From: an uncultured Acidimicrobiia bacterium
GTDB taxonomy: Bacteria; Actinomycetota; Acidimicrobiia; Spongiisociales; JAENVV01
DNA: 64,000 nucleotides
Reading direction: 5' to 3'
Assembly: GCA_963835515.1 (NCBI GenBank)
Contig: CAWIFX010000043.1
Span: 118,261 to 182,260, forward strand
In this document: positions 4,344 to 23,409 of the stretch, one piece after another
How the letters are laid out: the number at the start of each line of letters is the position of its first letter
How positions within the stretch are numbered: the first letter of the stretch is position 1
Translations under genes and position numbers: made by a program
Notes under the pieces: generated by a model
What the model was told of the DNA's origin: nothing
The model's database searches: none
What the model saw: the letters and a program-made list of their open reading frames with translations, nothing else

Positions 4344-6011
4344 ATGAAATCAGGCCCTATCGTGGCAATCCCGTTCGCCCTTCTGTCCCTGTTGGGCGCC
4401 TGCACTTCCGGCAGCAGTTCTGCCTCGTCGACCGTTCAGGAGACGCCATCGTCGAGTACGTCGGTTGCTTCCGCCACCACCACCACTACCGCAGATCTCA
4501 CGAACAACCCAACTGTGCCACAGACCGACAGCAATGGTGCCTTCGTCGGCACGCTGCTCGACGGGACTGAATACACGGTCTTCATTGAACCGAAGCGCCC
4601 GAACGAGGCCATCGGGGGAGTGACCGCCGTGATCGCCGCAGAGCTCGGTGACGTGTCGGCGTTTCTTGAGGTGTCGGTTGAGCCGGAGGCGGTCGAAGAC
4701 TCATCATGGGAGGGCGACACCTATCTTCTGCCGGTCGGCGATTGGACGGTGCGAATCTCGGGCGTGGCACCTGACGAACGAGAGCTACGCCAGGCAGTTG
4801 AATCGATTGACGGGCAAGAGTCGGCGGGTCTGCCGGTCTTGAAGCTAAAACCGCCACTGCGGTGGGCGTCCGACATTGAGACCGAAACAGTAATGCAGGT
4901 TCAGTACTCGACGTTCTCGGTCCGCCGGGGCTGCCAAACCCTGGCAGCCACCTGCAGCGTCGGGCACGCAGTCCAACTTGCCAACGTCGAGGCTTCCGAC
5001 GATGACTTCTTGTTCCTCGAGTCTGGGGCTCCTCGGCCGACTACCGATGCCTGGTTCGTCGACCCGGGGCCGCTCGTCCCACGCGGAGGTCATCAGGTCA
5101 TGTGGACCGGCGAGGAGATGATCGTGTGGGGTGGATCGATCGGAGACACACCGCCGAATTTGGTGGATGGAGCCGCTTTCGATCCAGATACTTCAACCTG
5201 GCGGTCGCTGGCCGCCGCACCGGCCGAAGCCCCTCAGCAAACTGCGGCCGTCTGGGCCGGTGATCGCATGATTGTGGTTAGTGGCGACTCCACCCTCGCC
5301 TACGACGCAGATAGGGACACCTGGGAGACGATCGGCGACGGGATCGACCTCTCGAGTGAGGTTCATATCCGTTGGACCGGTTCGACCGTGGCCGTTTGGA
5401 CGGCGAACGGCATATCGACGTTCACTCCGACGACCGGGCTGTGGACCCAGCTGCCGGATCCAGGGTTCGGTGGGCCGGGCCGTTGGGAAGGTTATCTCCT
5501 CTCAGCAAGTGGCGGTCTCGTCGCCGTCGGTCTGGATGCGCCAGTTTGTTCGGGGCGTCTAGCCGCTAGGTGGAATGGTTTGGAATGGGACCCCGTGCCG
5601 GAGGTCGATCTCACGAACGGTGAGCTGGCGGACTGTGGCTTGGCTAACCAGTCGGGGGTCATCGATGGCCAGCTCATCTTCTGGGAGGATCGTGATCACC
5701 CGACCATGGCGTTCGACTTTCGGACGGATAGGTGGGAGAAGGTCGACACTATCCCGCTGTCAGGTACTGAAGGCGCCTCAGGTGCGATTGAGGTCGGCTC
5801 AGGCATTCTGGTGCCACAGGGGACTCAAGCCGCCTGGCTGCCGAGTGTGGACGCCAGTTGGATCATGCTCGACATGCCAGGACAGGGCTCAGATCTAGAC
5901 ATGATCTGGACTGGCGACCTAGTCGTGATGTGGGGTGCCACATGCTGTTATGGCGCCGGAGACGTTCCCTTCACCATCGACGCCTGGCGCTGGACCATGC
6001 TCGGGCCCTAA
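4344..6011 (+). CDS. Secreted lipoprotein with Kelch/beta-propeller-like W-x-G repeats
   Basis: Signal peptide with lipobox LLGAC|T. Ser/Thr-rich linker. Four or more repeats of the type MxWTGxxMIVWGG / VWAGDRMIVVSG / MIWTGDLVVMWG. The start is taken at the internal Met preceding the signal peptide. Confidence 0.65.
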   Translation: MKSGPIVAIPFALLSLLGACTSGSSSASSTVQETPSSSTSVASATTTTTADLTNNPTVPQTDSNGAFVGTLLDGTEYTVFIEPKRPNEAIGGVTAVIAAELGDVSAFLEVSVEPEAVEDSSWEGDTYLLPVGDWTVRISGVAPDERELRQAVESIDGQESAGLPVLKLKPPLRWASDIETETVMQVQYSTFSVRRGCQTLAATCSVGHAVQLANVEASDDDFLFLESGAPRPTTDAWFVDPGPLVPRGGHQVMWTGEEMIVWGGSIGDTPPNLVDGAAFDPDTSTWRSLAAAPAEAPQQTAAVWAGDRMIVVSGDSTLAYDADRDTWETIGDGIDLSSEVHIRWTGSTVAVWTANGISTFTPTTGLWTQLPDPGFGGPGRWEGYLLSASGGLVAVGLDAPVCSGRLAARWNGLEWDPVPEVDLTNGELADCGLANQSGVIDGQLIFWEDRDHPTMAFDFRTDRWEKVDTIPLSGTEGASGAIEVGSGILVPQGTQAAWLPSVDASWIMLDMPGQGSDLDMIWTGDLVVMWGATCCYGAGDVPFTIDAWRWTMLGP

Positions 6012-6034
6012 CGGGCGCCAGAAACGACAAATAG

Positions 6035-6065
6035 AAGTGGGCCGCTCGATGAGCGGCCCACTTCT
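6035..6065. terminator. Bidirectional intrinsic terminator hairpin between convergent lipoprotein gene and nrdJ
   Basis: Perfect 14-bp inverted repeat GAAGTGGGCCGCTC-GAT-GAGCGGCCCACTTC, 24 nt after one stop codon and 22 nt before the other. Confidence 0.6.
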
Positions 6066-6086
6066 TACACCGGAATTACTTGCTGG

Positions 6087-9000
6087 CTAGCTACACCCGG
6101 TTGTGTCACCACACGTCAGGCAGACGTAGCACGAGCCGTTTCTCACCGTCATGTGGCCGCAATTGGAGCAGACGGGGGCGTCGCCCATGTTCTCCGCCAG
6201 GGCGGCGTCAGCGATGTTGGCCTTGGTCATAGCCGGGGCATGGGCCTCGGCCATTGCTGCGTGGGCAGCGCCTCCACCGTTGCTACCGCTACCCACCGGG
6301 ACTGGCTGGGGAGCAGACATTCCTGCATCCGAGTCGGCGAAAGCGGCAGCTGATTGCACAGCGTCCACATCACGTTCGGCGGCGGCGTCGGTCAGGTCCA
6401 ACTGGACTCCCGCGTCGACAGCCATGCCGGATGGTGGCTCGGGCAGGTCGCCCAATTCACGATCTGGCGGGATCTGAGCCAGGTCGTCACGGTGCAGGTA
6501 CTCGACACCGAGAGCCCGGAACACGTAGTCGACGATCGAGTTCGACATTTTGATGTTCGGATGGCCTTCGACCATGCCCCGAGGCTCAAACGTCTGGAAC
6601 GTGAACGTGTTGACGAACTCCTCGAGTGGCACGCCGTACTGCAAGCCCTTGCTCACCGCAATGGCAAAGCACGACAAGATGCCCTTGAGCGTGGCGCCTT
6701 CCTTCGCAAGATCGATGAAGATCTCACCTAAGGTGCCGTCGTCGTACTCGCCGGTACGCATGAACACCTTGTGGCCACCAATCCGGGCTTCCTGGTTGAA
6801 GCCGGCCCGACGGGACGGCAACAAGAAGCGCGGCGGACGCATCCCGGCGGCGTAAGCAGCCGTTGGCGACATCCCCGCGGGGATCTTGCCCCACGCGATC
6901 TCGGCCTCCTTCTCGATAGCGTCGATGATGTCATCGGAGACGTCATCATCAGCGCCATCATCGGAACTCGACGAGAGCGGTTGTGATGCCTTTGAGCCGT
7001 CCCTGTACAAGGCCATGGCCTTGACCCCCAATTGGTAGGACATCCAATAGGCATCTTCAACCTCTTCGACTGAGATCTCGTTTGGCATGTTGATGGTCTT
7101 GGAGATGGCACCCGAGATGAACGGCTGCGCCGCAGCCATCATCTTGATGTGACCGGTGTGGTGAATGAATCGCTCGCCGTACTTGCCGTTGCGGTTGGCA
7201 CAGTCGAACACGGCCAGGTGCTCGGGGGCCAACCCGGGGGCGCCTTCGATCGTCTGGCGGCCACAAATGTGATCGCCAGCCTCGATGATCTCGGCCCGGG
7301 TGAACCCGAGAGCCTGAAGCATGTCGAAGTCCCATGCCGTGTACTGCTCCTCGGTGAACCCGAGACTGTGCATGGCATCTTCGCCAACCACGAACACGTT
7401 GAAGGCATGCTTCAGTTCGAACACGCCCGGCAGGGCAGATTCGATCCTGGCAATCTCTTCGGTCGTGAAACCCTTGGCAGCCAACGTCTGCTTGTTGATG
7501 GCCGGGGCGTCCTCGAGAGACATGGTGCCGACAACGTGGGTCACGATGCGGGCGATGTCTTCTTCGGAATAACCAAGGTTGCGTAGCGCCGGAGCGATCG
7601 ACTGATTGGCGATCTTGAAGTATCCGCCTCCAGCGAGCTTCTTGAACTTCACGAGTGCGAAATCAGGCTCGACGCCGGTGGTGTCACAGTCCATGAGCAG
7701 ACCGATCGTGCCGGTCGGTGCCAGGACAGTCGCCTGAGCGTTGCGATAGCCGTGCCGTTCGCCACGATCAACCGCCAGGTCCCACGCCGAACGGGCAGCT
7801 TCGAGCATGTCCGACGGTGCCAGTTCAGCATCAATCGGCATGACGTAGTGCGTCACCCCTTCGTAGTCGGTGCGGTTGTAAGCAGCCCGACGGTGGTTGC
7901 GCATAACCCGCAGCATGTTGTCGCGGTTCTCTTCGAACCGAGGGAACGGACCGATCGGCGTTGATGCCACCTCGGCCGATGTCGCATAGGACATACCGGT
8001 CATGATGGCCGTCAATGCGCCGGCGATGGCCCGACCCTTGTCGGAGTCGTAGGGGATGCCCATCCGCATGAGGAGGGAACCGAGGTTGGCGTAGCCAAGA
8101 CCCAGCGTGCGGTAGTCGTACGAACCCTGGGCGATTGAAGCCGACGGGAAGTGTGCCATCGCCACCGAGATCTCCAGGACGACGGTCCAGATGCGGATGG
8201 CGTGACGGTATCCATCGAGGTCGAAGTCGCCCGTGTCCTCGTCGTAGAACTTCACCAGGTTCATCGAGGCCAGGTTGCAGGCCGTGTCGTCGAGGAACAT
8301 GTATTCCGAGCAAGGGTTCGATCCACGGATCTCGCCGCCGGCCGGAGACGTGTGCCACTGGTTGACCGTTGTGTGATATTGCATGCCCGGATCGGCGCAT
8401 GCCCAGGCGGCATCGGCGATCTGGCGCCACAAGTCACGAGCCTTCAGTGTCTTACGAATGCCGCCGGTACGGTTGGTCAGGTTCCAGTCCTCGTCGTTTT
8501 CGACTGCATCGAGGAAGGCCTTGTTTACCCGGACCGAGTTGTTCGAGTTTTGGCCCGAGACGGTGAGGTAGGCCTCGCCGTTGAAGTCGGCAGCGAAGCC
8601 ACCGTGCTGGATGAGCACCCGGGCCTTGTCCTCTTCGATCTTCTTCCAGGCAATGAACTCTTCGATGTCGGGATGATCAACGTCGAGGATGACCATCTTG
8701 GCCGCCCGACGGGTCGTGCCACCGGACTTGATGGCCCCGGCGGCCCGGTCGCCAACCTTGAGGAACGACATGAGTCCCGAGCTCTTGCCGCCACCGGATA
8801 GCGGCTCGCCGCCAGCCCGGATGTTGGAGAAGTTCGAACCGGTACCCGAACCCATTTTGAACAGGCGAGCTTCACGAACCCAGAGGTCCATAATGCCGCC
8901 TTCATTAACAAGGTCATCGTCGACCGCCTGGATGAAGCAGGCATGCGGGGCCGGCCGAGAGTACGAGTCGGGGGAGGGGGTCAGTTCTTTCGTGTCAGGA

Positions 9001-15856: not shown

Positions 15857-16897
15857 TCAGCGGATGAAAGTGATGGCGCCCTTCGTGCCATATTCGGTGA
15901 CTTCACCGCCAATGGTTATGAGGAACGCGTCGCCGAAGGTCAGGGTGGCATCGGTATCGAACGTGATCTCGGCTACGGCGACGGTCACGTCGTCGAAATC
16001 GGTGATAGCCCAACCGGGGAAGTCGGCCGTGGCCGTCAAAGGGATCCCGAGGTCGATATCGGTGAAGACCCGATCGGTGGCCAGGTCATAGATGACCAGA
16101 TTCGACGAGCCTGACAGGTACGCAACGGTTTGACCGTCCGATGAAACCCATGGGCGTCGGGGGCAGGTCCCGGTGAAGCACGGGACGATGACTTCGTTCT
16201 CGGTGCCGTCGAAACCGACCGTCTTCAGGAAGGCCTCACCCTCGGCGCGAATTCCCAGCACAAATCCGGTGGGGCTGAGCGAAGCAGACACCAGGGTGGA
16301 CTCGAACCCGGCAACGACACCGTAATCGGTGATTTCTCCGGTGCCGATGTCGATGGTGACCAGGTGTTCATTGAGCGTTTCGACACCCTCGACGACCGCT
16401 GGCTCAAGGATCTTGGCAACCGCCAACGGAGCCTCGTCTTTGAAACCGAGCGACAACAACCGCAATTGATTGGTCGCGGCGCTGGTGAGCACGTCGGCGC
16501 CCGCCCCTCGATCGACAAAAATGGGGCTATCGGCGCCGGGGAGTTGGTAGACAAGCGAACGGTTGACCGCAAAGGCGACGGCGCCTTGAGAGCCCGTCAG
16601 CCGGGTTCCGTTGGAGGCGTAGATCCCCGAGGAACGTGATTGGATCGTGGTTGCCTCGTTACGGCTGGGGAGTGCGGACCGACCGGCCGGCTGATCGACA
16701 AATCCGGGCTCGGGCGGGTTGACCACCTGCGGGACATCGTCGATGGTGATGGTGGTCGAGGTAGTGGTCGTAGGCGCCCCGGGGTCGGCGGTCGGCGGCT
16801 CCGACCCGCTGAAAGCGCCAGAAACCGCCAGTGCGATCAGCGCACCGACGACAGCTCCGACCGGAAGGCCGAAGAGAAATCCCTTGCGTTGTTCCAA
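15857..16897 (-). CDS. Hypothetical membrane-anchored secreted protein (N-terminal TM helix, Thr/Pro linker, beta-rich ectodomain)
   Basis: Single N-terminal TM (LPVGAVVGALIALAVSGAF) followed by a Thr-rich linker and a ~280-aa beta-strand-rich domain. No recognisable family. Confidence 0.5.
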   Translation of the reverse strand: MEQRKGFLFGLPVGAVVGALIALAVSGAFSGSEPPTADPGAPTTTTSTTITIDDVPQVVNPPEPGFVDQPAGRSALPSRNEATTIQSRSSGIYASNGTRLTGSQGAVAFAVNRSLVYQLPGADSPIFVDRGAGADVLTSAATNQLRLLSLGFKDEAPLAVAKILEPAVVEGVETLNEHLVTIDIGTGEITDYGVVAGFESTLVSASLSPTGFVLGIRAEGEAFLKTVGFDGTENEVIVPCFTGTCPRRPWVSSDGQTVAYLSGSSNLVIYDLATDRVFTDIDLGIPLTATADFPGWAITDFDDVTVAVAEITFDTDATLTFGDAFLITIGGEVTEYGTKGAITFIR

Positions 16898-17038
16898 CGA
16901 ACTCCCCTTTATCCAGCAGCCAATCTAACGCGCCTCGGAAAGCACAGCTTCCGTTTCGCGAAAGCGGGGTCGGTCAAAGGGCATAACCGACCCCGCTTGC
17001 ATTGCGTTGGGCCGCACGGGCCCACCTGGCAGGGAGGA

Positions 17039-18418
17039 CTACTCCCGGTTGTTGGTGAACTTGAAGACTTTCCGTCCGCCCTCGCCTTCGATCACCACCT
17101 CGAAGGTCTTTCCGGCCGGCGCTTCAGGAAACTCCACCCGGATCTCCCAGTGGCCTTCGCCGGACACCGTGGTTGTGCCCCCGCCGTACGGCGATCCGAC
17201 CCACACCGTGCTGCCCGGCTTGCCAGTGCCCCAGAAGACGTCGTAGGGAACCTCTTCTGCACATGAGCCGTATTTCTGGTTCGCCGTGAAAGCGACGACA
17301 TCACGTTCCGGATTGGTGAACTCAAACACCTTGGAGTGACCATTGGCGTCGCTGACGGTAACCCGAAAGGATGTCCCGGCAGGAGCCTCAAACCGGACTT
17401 TCATCTCCCACCCGCCCTTGGCATTCACCTCGGCCGATGCGCCACCGTACTCAGAGCGAGCGGTCACCTTCGTGCCAGGCTCTGCCGTTCCCCAAAAGAC
17501 ATCCCAGTTTTCCGGGTTGGTCCCCAGCTTTTGGTGGGCGGTGAATTCGACGTTGACGTTACGCCGATAGGCGACCATCTCGAACACGGCCCTTCCGCCA
17601 TCGGAAGACTCGACGACAACCCGGAACGGCTCCGCATGAGGAGCTTCCGGAAACTTGACCGACACGGCCCATTCGCCCGATTCGGCCGCCCTGGTCGATC
17701 CTGAACCGTACTTCGACTCGACGAAGATCTTGGCGCCGGGAGTGGCGGTGCCGTAGTAGCGGTTGCCGGGGATCTCGGCGTCACTCGCTTCATACTTCTG
17801 GTGAGCGGTGAACTTGACCTCTCGGACCACGTAGACAACGGTGATCGAAGCCTCGGACTTGTTACCCGCCTGGTCGGTTGCCACGAACGCAGCGCGGTTG
17901 CGGCCCGGATTCAGGCGGAGCTTGATCGCCCAGTGGCCCTCGGCGTCGACGTCGGCCTCCCAGTCACCCGCATGCACCGTGGCGCCTGGTTCGGTGATAC
18001 CGCGGAACACAACGAACTCCTCGGTAAGTTCGGCCCCGTCCTCCGGTGAGGTAATCCTCAGGATCGGTGGCGTGGTGTCGACGTCACGAACCTTGTCGAC
18101 CACTTCGTCGGTCGGCTCATCCTTTTCAGTGTCGACCTCAGCGGTGTCGACTTCGGGCTTATCTTTCGGCTCTTCGGCCGGTTCGTCTTTGACCGGTTCG
18201 TCTTTGACCGGCTTATCAACGGGTGCCTCGGAATCGAACCATCCGCCGGTGGTGTCGGTCACGACCGTGTCGACCGTGTCTTTGGTTGGTTCAGGGCTAT
18301 CGAGTCGGAAGAATGAAAAGACGGAAGACCCGTCCGGATTGGCTACTTGAGCCGCGGCGACGCCTGCCGTAAGTACGACAAGAAACGTCGCCAGCAAGAT
18401 GATGAACTTCTTTTGCAT
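17039..18418 (-). CDS. Secreted repeat protein: signal peptide, acidic KDEP linker, Ig-like domain, then 3-4 tandem ~85-aa 'FxANQKYG…DVFWGT(A/G)xPG(S/T)KV…G(G/E)WE…FPEAPAG' domains
   Basis: N-terminal signal peptide (MQKKFIILLATFLVVLTAGVAAAQ). Internal repeats are clearly alignable to each other and to the C-terminal ectodomain of the anti-sigma factor at 19086..20039. Confidence 0.65.
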   Translation of the reverse strand: MQKKFIILLATFLVVLTAGVAAAQVANPDGSSVFSFFRLDSPEPTKDTVDTVVTDTTGGWFDSEAPVDKPVKDEPVKDEPAEEPKDKPEVDTAEVDTEKDEPTDEVVDKVRDVDTTPPILRITSPEDGAELTEEFVVFRGITEPGATVHAGDWEADVDAEGHWAIKLRLNPGRNRAAFVATDQAGNKSEASITVVYVVREVKFTAHQKYEASDAEIPGNRYYGTATPGAKIFVESKYGSGSTRAAESGEWAVSVKFPEAPHAEPFRVVVESSDGGRAVFEMVAYRRNVNVEFTAHQKLGTNPENWDVFWGTAEPGTKVTARSEYGGASAEVNAKGGWEMKVRFEAPAGTSFRVTVSDANGHSKVFEFTNPERDVVAFTANQKYGSCAEEVPYDVFWGTGKPGSTVWVGSPYGGGTTTVSGEGHWEIRVEFPEAPAGKTFEVVIEGEGGRKVFKFTNNRE

Positions 18419-18485
18419 GGGCTACCCCCCGGTAACTGGTCCGTTTGTGGTCACTTTGAGTGGTCACTCGCCTCAGCTCCGTGAA

Positions 18486-18528
18486 AGGTTTACTTCGGGG
18501 GAATCTTTTTTGGAAAGTAAACCTCAGA
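18486..18528. promoter_or_regulatory. 9-bp perfect inverted repeat (GGTTTACTT…AAGTAAACC) in the divergent promoter region between the secreted repeat protein gene and the ECF sigma gene
   Basis: Seen directly: GGTTTACTT-cgggggaatcttttttgga-AAGTAAACC, 50 nt upstream of the sigma start. It is preceded by the direct repeat TGGTCACT(N5)TGGTCACT at ~18448-18468. Confidence 0.35.
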
Positions 18529-18576
18529 GGGTGCCGATACGAGTAACAAGCGACACGAAACGGTTCCGGACCGCAG

Positions 18577-19089
18577 ATGAGACAGATGGAAGAGACCCAG
18601 GTCGTTTCCCGACCTGAACGCTTTGACGACTTCTACCGCCGCGAATTCAGGCTGGTAGTTGGTCTGGCATATGTGTTGTCGGGATCGCGCAACAGCGCAG
18701 AGGATCTGGCGCAGGAGGCGTTCATGGCCGCTCATCGCGAGTGGGAGAAACTCCAAGCCTATGACAACCCGGGTGCCTGGGTTCGTCGGGTGGTGGCCAA
18801 CAAAGCAGTTTCTGGCTTCCGTCGTTCGGCTACCGAGATGAAGGCCCTCGCCAAGCTCGCCGCCCGCCGGATCGAACCACTCAACGAGATGGAACCCGAA
18901 GACGCCGAGTTCTGGGGCCATGTCCGTGATCTCCCGAAGCGCCAGTCGCAGGCGATCGCCTTGTTTTATCTCGAGGATCGGCCCGTCGAAGAGATCGCCC
19001 GCATCCTCGGATGCGCAACATCTACCGCCAAGGTACATCTGCACAAGGGACGAGCCAACCTTGCGACGCGCCTGGGGGTGGAGGCATGA
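18577..19089 (+). CDS. ECF (group 4) RNA polymerase sigma-70 factor
   Basis: Region 2 (…EDLAQEAFMAAHREW…) and region 4 HTH (…EIARILGCATSTAKVHLHKGR…). The stop overlaps the start of the downstream gene (ATGA). Confidence 0.85.
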   Translation: MRQMEETQVVSRPERFDDFYRREFRLVVGLAYVLSGSRNSAEDLAQEAFMAAHREWEKLQAYDNPGAWVRRVVANKAVSGFRRSATEMKALAKLAARRIEPLNEMEPEDAEFWGHVRDLPKRQSQAIALFYLEDRPVEEIARILGCATSTAKVHLHKGRANLATRLGVEA

Positions 19090-20039
19090 ACCTCGACGAA
19101 CGCGCTCGCCAGGCCTCGGCCGGACTGCGGGCCACGGTCGCCGCCTCTCCGGTCTCGAGTCCGATCCCCGGTATGGCTCGCTGGGAATGGGTGCCCCGCG
19201 CCCTGGCAGCCGTCGGTACTGCTGCGGCGATAGTCGTCGTCGCCATCCTGACGATCCAGGTTGCTCCTCAGACCCCGGCCCCGATTACCCAGCCCCCGGA
19301 CGGCACGGTCATCCCGGAATTTATCCCACCGGTCGAAGACTCACTGCTCACAACGGATACCACCGAACCGACGACAACGACGTCGGCCAGAGAGGGCGAT
19401 CCGATAGCTCCATCCGGCACCGGGGAGACCGGCGAATCCGGCCAGGTACTCGTCGTTGACACTGAGGCTCCTGCGCTGGTGATCCTTTCGCCGGAGAACG
19501 GCCAGGTCTTTGAAACGGACGTCGTGAGGTTCTCGGGCACTACCGAACCTGGTGCCGCGGTCAGAGCAGGCCGCTACGAGGCAGATGTCTCATCGGACGG
19601 TAAATGGTCGATTGTGCTGGTCTTGAGTCCTGGCTCCAACCGGGCGTTGTTCACCGCTACGGACGAGGCCGGCAACGAAGCTACCGCGCAGGTGGTGGTT
19701 GATTTCAAACGGCCAGTCGCATCAACCACGACGACCAAGCCGAAGAAGGACACGACCACGACGACCAAGGCTGATTTTGTAGAGTTTTCAGCGAACCAGG
19801 TCTACGGGACGTGCCCATCGTCGCCGCCGTTCGATGTCTTCTGGGGCACTGCCCAACCGGGCTCCAAGGTGATTGTCACGTCCGATTACGGTAGCGGCTC
19901 GGTCCTTGCCAACGCCGACGGGGGTTGGGAGCTGCGCGTGGAGTTCCCGGAAGCTCCCGCCGACGTTTTCTTCCTCGTGACCGCCAAATCCGTGGCTACG
20001 GGTCGGGCCAAGTCGTTCGAGTTCGCCTACAAGCCCTAG
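19086..20039 (+). CDS. Anti-sigma factor: single TM, extracytoplasmic Ig-like plus one 'FxANQ…FPEAPA' repeat domain
   Basis: Translationally coupled to the ECF sigma (ATGA overlap). Short cytoplasmic N-terminus, TM helix (ALAAVGTAAAIVVVAILTI), and an ectodomain homologous to the 17039..18418 product. Confidence 0.7.
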   Translation: MNLDERARQASAGLRATVAASPVSSPIPGMARWEWVPRALAAVGTAAAIVVVAILTIQVAPQTPAPITQPPDGTVIPEFIPPVEDSLLTTDTTEPTTTTSAREGDPIAPSGTGETGESGQVLVVDTEAPALVILSPENGQVFETDVVRFSGTTEPGAAVRAGRYEADVSSDGKWSIVLVLSPGSNRALFTATDEAGNEATAQVVVDFKRPVASTTTTKPKKDTTTTTKADFVEFSANQVYGTCPSSPPFDVFWGTAQPGSKVIVTSDYGSGSVLANADGGWELRVEFPEAPADVFFLVTAKSVATGRAKSFEFAYKP

Positions 20040-20164: not shown

Positions 20165-20878
20165 GTGATGGGAGCGGCCCATCTCATTCAATCGATCGCG
20201 GTCCTGTTCCTCGCCAACGACTTCTCGCTTCCGGTGGTCGGCTCCTTCCTGTCCGGCCCGCCTGGATCGGGGGATTTCGAGGTTGTCAACCTGTTTGATG
20301 TGCGAGTGGCCTACGGGGTTGCTGGCTTCCTGTGGCTTTCGGCAGCTGCCCATTTCCTCGTGGCGTCGCCGGGTATCAACGATTGGTACAACCGGAATTT
20401 GGCACAACGTCGCAATTACGCTCGATGGATCGAATACTCGATCAGCTCATCGTTGATGGTCGTGCTGATCGCCATGCTCACTGGTATCGCCGAAGTGTCG
20501 GCACTTGTAGTCATCTTTGGCGTGAACGCGTCGATGATTCTCTTCGGATGGCTCATGGAAAAGTATGAGCAGCCCGGCTCGACCAACTGGCTCTCATATT
20601 GGTTCGGAGTTATTGCTGGCCTGTTTCCCTGGCTGGCTATCGGCATCTATCTCTGGACACCTGGGTCGGAGTCGTCACCTCCAGGGTTCGTCTATGCGAT
20701 CTTTGTCTCGCTCTTCGTGTTCTTCAACACGTTTGCGGTGAACATGGTGCTCCAGTACCGCCAGACCGGCAAGTGGCGTGACTACATCTACGGGGAGCGC
20801 GCCTACATCTGGTTGAGCCTGCTCGCTAAGTCAGCCCTCGCCTGGCAGGTATTCGGAGGAACCCTCGCCACCGGGTAG
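20165..20878 (+). CDS. Heliorhodopsin (7-TM retinal-binding protein with inverted topology)
   Basis: 237 aa with 7 TM helices. Matches hallmark heliorhodopsin blocks recalled from HeR 48C12: RW(I/V)EYS(I/L)SSS with the counterion Glu, FGVNASMILFGW, GERAYI(W/V)LSL(L/V)AKSALAWQ(V/I)F with the Schiff-base Lys in TM7, and (P)GFVY(A/G)I. Confidence 0.8.
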   Translation: MMGAAHLIQSIAVLFLANDFSLPVVGSFLSGPPGSGDFEVVNLFDVRVAYGVAGFLWLSAAAHFLVASPGINDWYNRNLAQRRNYARWIEYSISSSLMVVLIAMLTGIAEVSALVVIFGVNASMILFGWLMEKYEQPGSTNWLSYWFGVIAGLFPWLAIGIYLWTPGSESSPPGFVYAIFVSLFVFFNTFAVNMVLQYRQTGKWRDYIYGERAYIWLSLLAKSALAWQVFGGTLATG

Positions 20879-21571: not shown

Positions 21572-21928
21572 CGACGACCGCTCGTTCGACTCGAAAGTGA
21601 TATCGGTAGCCACCGATCCCAGCACCATGCCCCCGATGGAATCACTCCAATCGACAGGGGGCCATGCGTCGGCCGATGTTTCTACTGACATGACGAACTC
21701 AACTGTGTGGGCGTTCCCTGCCAGAGCCGTACGGAGGGTGGTGTCGGTCGCCAGATCTAGGAGCGCCGTAGCGGATTCATCAATGGCCAGGCCAAGGTCC
21801 TCGACCCGGTCATAACCGAGGCCGGCCAGGTCGGCGGCTCGATTCGCCATGGACCGGACCACCCGTACCATCGCCGGATGGCCGGGCAGTTCCACAATCA
21901 TTGTCTCCGGGGTCGCAGGGTGTTCCAT
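21545..21928 (-). CDS. Anti-sigma regulatory factor, RsbW/UsfX-like with degenerate ATPase motifs
   Basis: ~128 aa with fold-level resemblance to GHKL anti-sigma kinases (…DLGLAIDESATALLD…), but the N-box Asn/His are absent. Divergent from the STAS gene. Confidence 0.45.
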   Translation of the reverse strand: MEHPATPETMIVELPGHPAMVRVVRSMANRAADLAGLGYDRVEDLGLAIDESATALLDLATDTTLRTALAGNAHTVEFVMSVETSADAWPPVDWSDSIGGMVLGSVATDITFESNERSSSIRVSIAN

Positions 21929-21966
21929 GGCTCGTATACTACGGCACCATCCAAGGGGAGGTCTCG

Positions 21967-22302
21967 TTGACACATCTAACGATTGAACAAAGTGAATCGA
22001 ACGGCAAGTGTGTCCTGACTACCGTCGGAGAGATTGACCTGGCCTCAGCGCCAGATCTGGAAAGTCGGCTCAGCCAGTGCTTGGGTGACGGACCGGTGGT
22101 AGTCGACCTGTCAGCGGTTTCCTTTATCGATTCGACCGGGCTGCGCGTACTCCTGGCTGCTCACTCGGGGGCCGGTGATGGCGGTAACGAGCTCGGACTC
22201 GTCGTGACCGACGGTCCCGTCACCAAACTCTTGTCGATAACGGGTGTTGATGGACACCTGAATATCTTCCGATCGGTGGATGCCGCCAGTTCTGATGCGT
22301 AA
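21967..22302 (+). CDS. STAS-domain anti-sigma-factor antagonist (RsbV/SpoIIAA-like)
   Basis: …VDLSAVSFIDSTGLRVLL… is the STAS signature with the phosphorylatable Ser in DST. TTG start preceded by AAGGGGAGG RBS. Confidence 0.75.
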   Translation: MTHLTIEQSESNGKCVLTTVGEIDLASAPDLESRLSQCLGDGPVVVDLSAVSFIDSTGLRVLLAAHSGAGDGGNELGLVVTDGPVTKLLSITGVDGHLNIFRSVDAASSDA

Positions 22303-22684
22303 TCAGCCTGACGGTCCCTTTAAGCTGATAATCCCAAGCAGCGCGGATCACGTCGCCACGGCTCGCTTGTTCATCGCCAGTCTGGGAAGGACGCTCGGAC
22401 TGCATGCCGAGGTGATCGATGATCTGCGGTTGGCTGTCTCGGAAGCCGTAACTGCCGCGATTCTTTCCGCCCGGTCATCCGAAGTCACCATCAGTGGGAC
22501 GATCGGCCCCGAAGGCGTCTCGGTGCGAGTTGGGCCGCTCTCTGACAATGGTGCCGCAGGCGAACCCGCCCCAACCGATCAGCCCTCCCTCGATCTCGGA
22601 TCGATCGTTCGGGCGCTTTTTCACAACGCTGCGTTTGAAGGAGATACGTTGGTTATTGCCGTCTCGTGGCGACCGCCCACATGA
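22295..22684 (+). CDS. Anti-sigma regulatory factor, RsbW-like (degenerate ATPase motifs)
   Basis: Overlaps the STAS stop (ATGCGTAA) and the sigma start (ATGA). …DDLRLAVSEAVTAAIL… is an N-box-like region lacking Asn/His. Confidence 0.5.
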   Translation: MRNQPDGPFKLIIPSSADHVATARLFIASLGRTLGLHAEVIDDLRLAVSEAVTAAILSARSSEVTISGTIGPEGVSVRVGPLSDNGAAGEPAPTDQPSLDLGSIVRALFHNAAFEGDTLVIAVSWRPPT

Positions 22685-23409
22685 CCGGTTCGGTCGAACA
22701 CGAGAACTGGTTCGACCGGCGCGACGATCCTGACGTCAGGCGTCAGATCGTTGAACGGTACGACGCGCTCGCCATTGGACTGGCCCAACGATTCCGGGGG
22801 AGGGGCGAGGCGACCGATGACCTGGTTCAGGTTGCTCGATACGGTCTCCTGAAGACTATCGATCGGTTCGACGTATCGGTCGGTGTGCAGTTCTCGACGT
22901 TTGCGACGAAGTCGATTCTCGGCGAGCTCAAACGCCACCTTCGAGACAAGGCTTGGTCGGTCCGGGTTCCGCGGTCGCTGCAAGAGACTTACTTGCGAAC
23001 CGGTCGAACCGTCGAAGAGTTGACCCAGAAACTAGGTCGCTCGCCGACGATTGCCGAGATTGCCGAGGAGCTGGAGATAACGGCTGAAGAAGTCCTCGAC
23101 GCCATGGATGCCGGCTCGGCCTTCACGGCAGCTTCGCTCGACCTGCCGGTCGGCGACGATGACGGTGGCTCAACGCTCGGCGACCTGTTGCCGTTCGAAG
23201 ACGAGATCCTTGGTCGATCAGACGAACGGGCCACGGTGTCGGAACACTTGAAGGCGCTTCCGGAGCGGGAACGGCAAATCATCTATCTCAGGTTCTTCGA
23301 AGCCAAGTCGCAGCGGGAGGTCGCCGACGAACTCGGCATATCTCAGATGCATGTTTCCCGACTCTTGAGGAAAGCTCTGTCGGACCTTCGGGTAGCCATC
23401 GACGCTTAA
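22681..23409 (+). CDS. Group 3 sigma-70 factor, SigB/SigF/SigG family
   Basis: Regions 2.x (…DLVQVARYGLLKTIDRFD…), 3 and 4 (…QREVADELGISQMHVSRLLRKAL…). Last gene of the STAS-RsbW-sigma operon. Confidence 0.85.
   Translation: MTGSVEHENWFDRRDDPDVRRQIVERYDALAIGLAQRFRGRGEATDDLVQVARYGLLKTIDRFDVSVGVQFSTFATKSILGELKRHLRDKAWSVRVPRSLQETYLRTGRTVEELTQKLGRSPTIAEIAEELEITAEEVLDAMDAGSAFTAASLDLPVGDDDGGSTLGDLLPFEDEILGRSDERATVSEHLKALPERERQIIYLRFFEAKSQREVADELGISQMHVSRLLRKALSDLRVAIDA

Follow-up and report, generated by a model that had tools for sequence, protein, structure and literature searches.

This study concerns a three-gene module in a 64,000-nt stretch of DNA (the whole stretch that was analyzed, hereafter the window) from an uncultured Acidimicrobiia bacterium (contig CAWIFX010000043.1 of GenBank assembly GCA_963835515.1). 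In this module a secreted protein of immunoglobulin (Ig)-like repeats (SEC) is encoded divergently from a sigma factor of the extracytoplasmic function (ECF) type and a single-pass membrane protein (ASF), which putatively serves as anti-sigma factor and sensor and whose ectodomain is a paralog of SEC. ECF sigma factors form the largest class of bacterial transmembrane signaling sigma factors and, to our knowledge, neither the signal nor the mode of anti-sigma action nor the regulon has been established for most ECF groups. A first-pass annotation, made from the sequence alone, had described a secreted protein gene on the reverse strand followed by an ECF sigma gene and a membrane protein gene on the forward strand, and the three genes lie where it placed them (Table 1). 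Its identification of the sigma factor also holds, as the 170-amino-acid (aa) protein has Pfam matches to Sigma70_r2 (aa 19-84, E 5e-13) and Sigma70_r4_2 (aa 119-162, E 3e-12) and no regulatory extension, and is an ECF (group 4) sigma factor with the sigma2 and sigma4 domains only. It scores 62.1 bits against TIGR02937 (sigma70-ECF, cut-off 42.9). The best NCBIfam match, TIGR02983 (SigE-fam_strep), gives 117.7 bits, below its cut-off of 141.55, so that the protein is related to that family and not a member of it; the nearest solved structures are entries named SigE (9m9d, E 2e-10) and SigW. The region shared by the divergent genes, previously given as 160 bp, measures 158 bp (18419-18576). The mechanical list of open reading frames (ORFs) starts ASF at 19011, but translation almost certainly begins at the ATG at 19086, which forms an ATGA overlap with the stop codon of the sigma gene and gives a protein of 317 aa.

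The paralogy of SEC and the ASF ectodomain, first proposed by eye, is real and far beyond chance, given a BLASTP alignment of 132 bits (E 2e-39; 81 of 197 positions identical, 41%) and a second aligned segment with E 6e-26. Compared domain by domain, identities run from 42% to 55%: the Ig domains of the two proteins are 54% identical (E 3e-29), and the C-terminal unit of ASF, which we call U, is 55%, 51% and 42% identical to units U2, U3 and U1 of SEC, respectively (E 3e-20 to 3e-28). The three U units of SEC are 40-49% identical among themselves, and the Ig and U domains are distantly related to each other (E ~1e-6). Where three to four tandem units of about 85 aa had been counted, the tandem organization stands and the count does not, since SEC consists of three units of ~87 aa plus one Ig domain. 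No sortase or lipobox signal was found in SEC. The transmembrane (TM) segment of ASF begins ~38 residues from the N-terminus (at residues 32-51 in a hydropathy scan of 74 homologs), which marks it as a signal anchor rather than a cleavable signal peptide, and a short T/K linker joins the Ig domain to the U unit.

The repeat family, which the first-pass annotation could not place, belongs to the Big_6 and Glucodextran_B/Big_13 types of Ig-like domain in Pfam. Big_6 (PF17936) matches SEC in four stretches with 61.5 bits (E 9e-17) and ASF marginally with 28.4 bits (gathering score 27.6), whereas Glucodextran_B (PF09136) scores above its gathering score of 27 in both SEC (43.1 bits, E 4e-11) and ASF (35.9 bits), and Big_13 (PF19077) falls just under its cut-off with 25.9 and 23.3 bits. 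In NCBIfam, the Ca_tandemer model NF033510 (cut-off 50 bits) gives a borderline 48.5 bits for SEC and 33.6 bits for ASF, so that neither is a member. A structure prediction of the repeat had been suggested as a check, and an AlphaFold2 model of ASF built with a 66-sequence alignment contains, besides a helix at residues 3-19, two confident beta-sandwiches (aa 125-210 and 232-317) with a predicted local distance difference test (pLDDT) score above 95, which Foldseek recognizes as Ig-like. Against the PDB, the Foldseek matches of the ectodomain are generic tandem Ig-like domains with E ~1e-6, among them those of titin (Z1Z2), of the adhesins MpIBP and SiiE, of glucodextranase and of SGBP-B and RbmA; SEC itself, compared by sequence, retrieved no relative from the PDB. 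When the U unit was searched exhaustively with HMMER, 588 cluster representatives out of 1.84 billion matched at E <= 1e-3, including giant proteins of 1810-3659 aa that Pfam reads as 14-30 Big_6 repeats, one of them with a BapA_N prefix. The small number of representatives and these giant relatives indicate that the U units form a minor, divergent offshoot of an adhesin-type Ig domain. The Big_6/Big_13 repeat adhesins comprise these giant proteins and Ca2+-stabilized tandem Ig adhesins such as MpIBP and SiiE; SEC and ASF have in common with them the domain families PF17936 and PF19077/PF09136, near-threshold scores against NF033510 and the Foldseek matches 5irb, 4p99 and 2yn5. By comparison, SEC and ASF are small (two to five domains), do not carry an adhesin prefix or secretion-system signals, and have in their terminal unit a lone cysteine and a PP(F/Y)D motif that are absent from inner units; ASF is, moreover, a sigma-linked membrane sensor. 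The first-pass idea of a ligand/decoy or homotypic-interaction signaling logic had been staked on the repeats not being a common fold devoid of conserved synteny. The fold is indeed a common one, but the synteny and the shared promoter are conserved, as described below.

Table 1. Features of the module and of its surroundings, in positions of the window and, for proteins, in residues
Feature	Position	Strand	Residues	Description
SEC gene (secreted paralog)	17039-18418	-	459 aa	ORF
ECF sigma factor gene	18577-19089	+	170 aa	ORF, Pfam
ASF gene (single-pass membrane protein, putative anti-sigma factor/sensor)	19086-20039	+	317 aa	
Predicted autoregulatory promoter of the sigma operon	18517-18547	+		-35 GTAAACC 18517-18523, 16-nt spacer, -10 CGAGTAAC 18540-18547
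Predicted ECF-type promoter of SEC	18463-18493	-		-35 GTAAACC 18487-18493, 16-nt spacer, -10 CGAGTGAC 18463-18470
Direct repeat GTGGTCACT x2, 13-nt period	18447-18468	.		overlaps SEC -10 and leader start
SEC signal peptide, Sec-type			aa 1-23	AAA/QV
SEC acidic D/E/P/K-rich disordered region			aa 24-112	linker composition
SEC Ig-like domain, DTTPP...TDxAGN type	17825-18082	-	aa 113-198	Glucodextran_B/Big_13 matches
SEC unit U1	17561-17824	-	aa 199-286	Big_6-like beta-sandwich
SEC unit U2	17300-17560	-	aa 287-373	Big_6-like beta-sandwich
SEC unit U3	17042-17299	-	aa 374-459	Big_6-like beta-sandwich
SEC Cys386 codon	17261-17263	-	Cys386	sole Cys of SEC, last unit, motif YGSC
ASF cytoplasmic amphipathic helix	19092-19142	+	aa 3-19	LDERARQASAGLRATVA; alignments, AlphaFold2
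ASF TM segment	19200-19265	+	~aa 39-60	direct reading and hydropathy scan
ASF Thr/Pro-rich disordered stalk	19266-19454	+	aa 61-123	pLDDT mostly ~45-60; T 20%, P 17%
ASF Ig-like domain	19455-19712	+	aa 124-209	pLDDT >95, beta-sandwich; Glucodextran_B E 7e-9
ASF C-terminal U domain, seven strands	19773-20036	+	aa 230-317	pLDDT >95, strand map
ASF Cys243 codon	19812-19814	+	Cys243	sole Cys of ASF, loop between first two U strands
STAS protein	21901-22302	+		partner-switching set
HATPase_c_2 anti-sigma-type kinase	22280-22684	+		partner-switching set
Group-3 sigma factor, regions 2, 3 and 4	22666-23409	+		partner-switching set

The module recurs in other genomes. A word-indexed search gave 107 homolog clusters, all from Acidimicrobiia or Actinomycetota metagenome bins, and these fall into two classes, namely membrane-anchored Ig-U proteins of ~300 aa (74 clusters) and signal-peptide proteins with an Ig-U, Ig-U-U or Ig-U-U-U architecture. 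A scan that took one genome per species yielded 79 loci (labeled with an L and a number below). At all 55 loci with an ortholog of the sigma factor (59-98% identity), an Ig-U or U-only membrane protein is encoded directly downstream, and in 53 of the 55 its start lies -10 to +3 nt from the sigma stop codon, 37 of these being 4-nt overlaps; by this spacing the two genes are translationally coupled at 53 of the 55 loci. In a relative with 45% identity, public gene calls made independently also place a 4-nt overlap here and agree in Pfam content. The triad of secreted protein, sigma factor and putative anti-sigma factor, for which a search in other genomes had been proposed, is found again: a divergent secreted paralog adjoins the sigma gene at 23 of the 51 sigma loci whose upstream DNA extends for 1.2 kb or more, and elsewhere the secreted paralog lies 6-12 kb off or on another contig (L016/L055, L018/L048, L047/L049, L050). 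In 21 of 37 genomes it is exactly Ig-U, that is, a soluble copy of the sensor ectodomain. At the related loci we found no further conserved neighbor (protease, two-component system or kinase) beyond the sigma factor and the Ig/U proteins, the remaining neighbor clusters being antisense shadow ORFs or sporadic genes, which leaves no two-component system or kinase as an alternative regulator. Within the window itself, no other gene has Ig/U domains or encodes a similar sigma factor, and base composition (GC 0.61-0.63) has no anomaly pointing to a mobile element.

In identity trees, the sensor and secreted domains cluster by type and are never nearest neighbors within a genome, and sensor-secreted identity is similar for pairs from the same genome (47-51%) and for pairs across genomes (45-47%). 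Both observations indicate that the duplication is old and that the two copies have been maintained by selection. The clustering by type also led us to reject concerted evolution or gene conversion between sensor and product.

Several architectural variants were seen alongside the common form. The sensors of L077 (5632-7008) and L078 (5383-7272) have four to six U units and no Ig domain, while keeping the N-terminal helix motif described below, and the secreted proteins of L066 (1894-3270) and L067 (1660-3330) have three to four Ig domains plus one U unit. In Ilumatobacteraceae and related bins (L069-L074, ~4800-6300), the gene for a distant ECF sigma factor (27-34% identical) precedes one for a TM protein that begins differently (MNDF...) but has a C-terminal U unit with the same lone cysteine, and another conserved two-block motif, TGTCAGAG-N16-GCGTCGTA, stands upstream of the sigma gene; this arrangement indicates that the U-domain sensor has been combined with a second ECF clade. 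Some loci of the module come from bins labeled Kiloniellales, Gemmatimonadales, Acidobacteriota, Armatimonadetes or Mycobacterium (L024, L028, L037, L039, L061, L063, L066, L067, L079), and these are probably mis-binned contigs or mislabeled bins.

The intergenic region contains two exact copies of GTAAACC-N17-GAGT, one per strand (18517-18544 on the forward and 18466-18493 on the reverse strand). The predicted sigma-operon promoter ends 29 nt upstream of the sigma start codon and scores 43.2 bits against a 33-nt position weight matrix (PWM) made from sigma-upstream sites, and the predicted SEC promoter ends 44 nt upstream of the SEC start codon and scores 31.6 bits. The pattern GTAAACC-N16-CGAGT(A/G)AC is present upstream of the sigma gene, in fixed register, at 54 of 54 loci. 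Its two blocks, a -35 element containing AAC and a -10 element containing CG, match the layout of ECF promoters, and its place before the sigma gene is, in silico, the pattern of ECF autoregulation; the promoters of Streptomyces coelicolor SigE have AAC and TC separated by a 16-17-nt spacer (PMC6767563). Across the window, the PWM finds two sites of at least 12 bits, both of them the intergenic pair. Across 775 kb of related loci it finds 80 sites of at least 15 bits, against 0-1 in Markov-1 simulations, and all 80 lie just upstream of, and point at, a sigma gene or a secreted Ig/U paralog. About ten motif-bearing paralogs are situated away from any sigma gene (L021, L027, L046, L048, L050, L055, L060, L062, L063, L065). 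A regular-expression search recovers the motif at 35 of the 39 secreted paralogs with upstream DNA; of the four that it misses, two are misclassified fragments and the other two, which the PWM did find, are due to start-codon artifacts. At L011 the spacer is 17 nt at both promoters, so that spacer length co-varies.

When metagenomes were scanned with the exact pattern, 12 of 121 sites were real (nine before a sigma gene, three before a secreted paralog), most of the remainder had arisen by chance in unrelated taxa, and the scan brought up no further recurrent target family. A sigma-70 promoter scan of the region found nothing, which is consistent with dependence on an alternative sigma factor. 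The motif thus stands before the sigma genes and essentially all secreted paralogs and before nothing else in the ~840 kb sampled, which marks the paralog as the predicted conserved target of the regulon. The sigma factor very probably transcribes its own operon and the secreted paralog, and the latter is apparently its only conserved external target within the ~840 kb sampled. Two further observations concern these sequences. The direct repeat GTGGTCACT near the SEC promoter is kept only in the four closest relatives (L001-L004). In the metagenome scan, TGTAAACCCGATGAAATAYTTGCACGAGTAACCG occurred almost unchanged in about ten contigs (L084, L088, L104, L105, L108, L110, L169, L171, L178, L198), where it scores low against the PWM and is followed by neither a sigma gene nor an Ig/U gene, and is probably a conserved coding segment of another organism.

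We propose, with moderate confidence, that these genes form a self-contained ECF module of the Acidimicrobiia in which ASF would restrain the sigma factor, the freed sigma factor would drive its own operon and the secreted paralog, and sensor and product would share a ligand. The N-terminal helix of ASF would hold the sigma factor inactive until an event at the Ig-U ectodomain causes the removal of ASF, probably by regulated proteolysis. The freed sigma factor would then transcribe the operon for itself and ASF, as well as SEC, and SEC would bind, bridge or sequester an extracellular or envelope ligand in competition with the sensor, giving negative feedback. Since sensor and output have matching domains, both would have to address the same partner, and in our view a shared external or envelope ligand is the most likely such partner, as in the logic of RsgI and the cellulosome. 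The paralogs do not co-vary in a genome-specific manner, which slightly favors a shared third-party ligand.

The first step of this proposal depends on ASF being an anti-sigma factor, which is likely, and for which its position, topology, translational coupling and conserved helix argue. ASF is encoded at +1 relative to the sigma gene and has one TM segment and a conserved cytoplasmic helix, the features by which Casas-Pastor et al. (2021) recognize a putative anti-sigma factor. The cytoplasmic part is ~38 aa long with one predicted helix (aa 3-19), whose family motif LDxRARxAAxxLxxxV has R6, A7 and A10 in at least 90% of aligned sequences and is retained down to ~35% overall identity, against a background of variation in the remaining tail, the TM segment and the stalk; this helix is a candidate sigma-binding element. 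A profile search for this helix on other ectodomains, made with the 58-aa N-terminal region, returned three truncated matches, the query being too short for database-wide significance. The anti-sigma label given by the first-pass annotation therefore stands on context and not on domain content, since no known anti-sigma domain is detectable. Anti-sigma domains of class I have four helices, those of class II (CnrY, NepR) form a two-helix clamp and that of class III (RsbN) has three helices (PMC6101532). In most of the 114 ECF groups with a putative anti-sigma factor, the TM protein at +1 matches no Pfam anti-sigma domain (PMC7826278). The short domains of classes II and III are, like the tail of ASF, small helical cytoplasmic elements without sequence similarity to class I, but only a single helix of ~17 residues is conserved or predicted in ASF. 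RsbN is also similar to ASF in being lineage-restricted and always adjoining its sigma factor, and that sigma factor, BldN, drives the chaplin and rodlin genes (PMC6101532). If the ASF helix is an anti-sigma domain, it would be of the smallest type.

A number of points weigh against the proposal as a whole. No anti-sigma family is found in ASF at E <= 1 in Pfam or E <= 0.1 in NCBIfam, and the class I domain (zf-HC2, RskA or RsdA-like; ~80-90 aa, a three-helix bundle plus a fourth helix) is not present. With one helix in ~38 aa, the cytoplasmic part is shorter than the anti-sigma domains of classes I, II and III (PMC6101532), and TM proteins encoded at +1 are only putative anti-sigma factors, not all of which need to function in this way (PMC7826278). 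Without concerted evolution, there is no signal of a co-adapted interface between sensor and product. None of the Foldseek matches in the PDB points to a specific ligand, Ig-like folds being uninformative on specificity. Finally, both promoters are predictions from sequence, and the sampling of the regulon covered only the ~840 kb around the loci.

The distribution of cysteine bears on a second reading, in which the secreted paralog is itself the ligand of the sensor. A cysteine is found at a fixed place (YGxC) of the C-terminal unit in 52 of 55 membrane proteins and in 40 of 40 secreted paralogs, whereas none of the 24 inner units of secreted paralogs and none of the 98 Ig domains has any, and exactly one cysteine per protein is present in 83 of 98 homologs. 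A single cysteine makes an intramolecular disulfide impossible. We considered and rejected a thioester like that of some adhesins, which is unlikely because no conserved glutamine accompanies the cysteine: none of the U-domain columns that are invariant, or nearly so, holds a Gln. In the AlphaFold2 model, C243 is in an ordered loop between strands one and two of seven, and from Ig topology this loop would be at the C-terminal end of the sandwich, that is, at its free distal tip. Within our main proposal, too, the single conserved free cysteine at the distal tips of both proteins suggests that covalent, redox-sensitive pairing contributes. If Ig-U of the sensor paired with Ig-U(n) of the product, possibly by a tip-to-tip disulfide, the module would gauge and stabilize the amount or assembly state of SEC, or the extracytoplasmic thiol-redox state. 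This reading, which we consider unlikely though worth weighing, would explain why the cysteine occupies the same position only in the terminal units of both proteins, and it would also fit the secreted paralog being the sole conserved target besides the operon and having, in its commonest form, the architecture of the sensor ectodomain. However, the paralogs cluster by type, identity within a genome is barely above that across genomes, and a free thiol could serve ligand chemistry equally well. A fully self-referential circuit, with a novel, minimal anti-sigma domain of one helix, a sensor that is a tethered copy of its sole conserved output, and covalent pairing through the tip cysteines, seems to us rather improbable. 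If this were true, the cell would sense how much of its own secreted protein is present or how it is assembled, or else the extracytoplasmic thiol-redox state, and the circuit would be a bacterial counterpart of soluble decoy-receptor feedback.

A third reading, which we think quite doubtful, denies ASF any anti-sigma role and takes it as a co-transcribed, membrane-anchored member of the same surface protein family, a target of the sigma factor like SEC, with the sigma factor controlled by its transcription, by an anti-sigma factor encoded elsewhere or by proteolysis. It would account for the lack of anti-sigma domain homology and the very short cytoplasmic tail, and it has the caution about +1 TM proteins (PMC7826278) on its side. 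But a plain anchor would not need the LDxRARxAAxxL motif, which is kept while the tail, TM segment and stalk change, and kept even where the ectodomain has become four to six U units (L077, L078). Pairing with the sigma factor is, moreover, universal at the 55 loci, with translational coupling at nearly all of them (53), and the sigma factor has no extension of its own and no other conserved regulator gene nearby. The last reading, that the intergenic motif copies, which form a 33-nt inverted repeat with 73% complementarity, are an operator for a dimeric factor such as the product of a nearby MarR gene, and that the paralogy is ordinary shuffling of the very common Ig-like domains, was rejected as highly improbable because a single copy with a fixed orientation remains upstream of the sigma gene where the divergent paralog is absent, and likewise at remote paralogs, where it points toward the gene, and also in view of the ECF-like pattern, in which two conserved blocks flank a non-conserved 16-17-nt spacer and the motif ends 17-118 nt from the start codon (cf. 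PMC6767563) and of the failure of MarR and other neighbors to be conserved with the module.

Some neighboring genes deserve mention in their own right. A heliorhodopsin gene (Pfam PF18761, E 6e-99) lies at 20165-20878 on the forward strand, 125 bp downstream of ASF and on the same strand as it. Three close relatives (L001, L002 and L004) show this order too, and in L026 a heliorhodopsin gene is situated 5 kb upstream, but the adjacency is not kept in more distant genomes. Directly downstream of SEC, at 15857-16897 on the reverse strand, a 346-aa protein with an N-terminal TM anchor and a Thr-rich stalk is encoded, which has no Pfam or NCBIfam match and is kept only in the four closest relatives (L001-L004); a weak terminator-like hairpin (16947-16965) separates its gene from that of SEC. 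A partner-switching set at 21901-23409 on the forward strand is unrelated to the Ig/U module.

In terms of its logic, and by analogy only, the closest known system to the module as we read it is the set of SigI/RsgI biomass sensors of Clostridium thermocellum, especially SigI6-RsgI6-Xyn10D. In the clostridial systems, the anti-sigma factors' ectodomains are carbohydrate-binding modules (CBMs) or glycoside hydrolase (GH) modules that resemble the secreted enzymes under their control (PMC4711584, PMC10328401), and the GH10 sensor module of RsgI6 shares 57% identity with Xyn10D, which is expressed from a SigI6-dependent promoter (PMC4711584). Both systems have a single-pass membrane protein (in ASF a putative anti-sigma factor) with an ectodomain paralogous to secreted products of the cognate sigma factor, an autoregulated sigma operon (here predicted) and a linker running across the wall from the TM segment to the sensor module. 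They differ in that the sigma factor here is a true ECF factor of sigma2 and sigma4 (Sigma70_r4_2) and not a SigI with SigI-C; in that ASF has no RsgI_N or SEAL autoproteolytic domain and a cytoplasmic part of ~38 aa, as against ~165 aa in RsgI; in that its modules are Ig-like and are neither CBMs nor glycoside hydrolases; in that SEC has no catalytic domain and is apparently the sole conserved target; and in that the module belongs to the Actinomycetota and not the Firmicutes. As neither SigI-C nor RsgI_N is present, the module is not a member of the SigI/RsgI systems, and the resemblance is functional only.

Generic actinobacterial ECF modules with a +1 protein (the TIGR02983 SigE-type; the clade of ECF38, ECF39, ECF51 and ECF222, PMC7826278) have in common with the module a minimal ECF sigma factor, a +1 TM protein without a Pfam anti-sigma domain and a promoter, predicted to be autoregulatory, whose -35 element contains AAC. 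The sigma factor described here differs from the SigE type in scoring below the TIGR02983 cut-off, and SigE of S. coelicolor is under the control of a two-component system and has a large regulon (PMC6767563). In the literature we found no description of this module or of an ECF group with a +1 ectodomain paralogous to its target. We therefore regard the module as an uncharacterized, lineage-restricted ECF variant of a known design in which the sensor mirrors the product.

As such, it extends the principle that a sensor carries the module of the secreted protein it regulates from the clostridial SigI/RsgI systems to a true ECF sigma factor and to the Actinomycetota. The single conserved helix of ASF raises the possibility of a fourth type of anti-sigma element, a minimal one, and the conserved lone extracytoplasmic cysteine stands out as a candidate mechanistic residue. 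The module also offers clean handles, being a unit of two or three genes with one sharp promoter motif and apparently a single conserved target that mirrors the sensor, and its sigma factor, promoter and 40-residue putative inhibitor could serve as a compact orthogonal switch.

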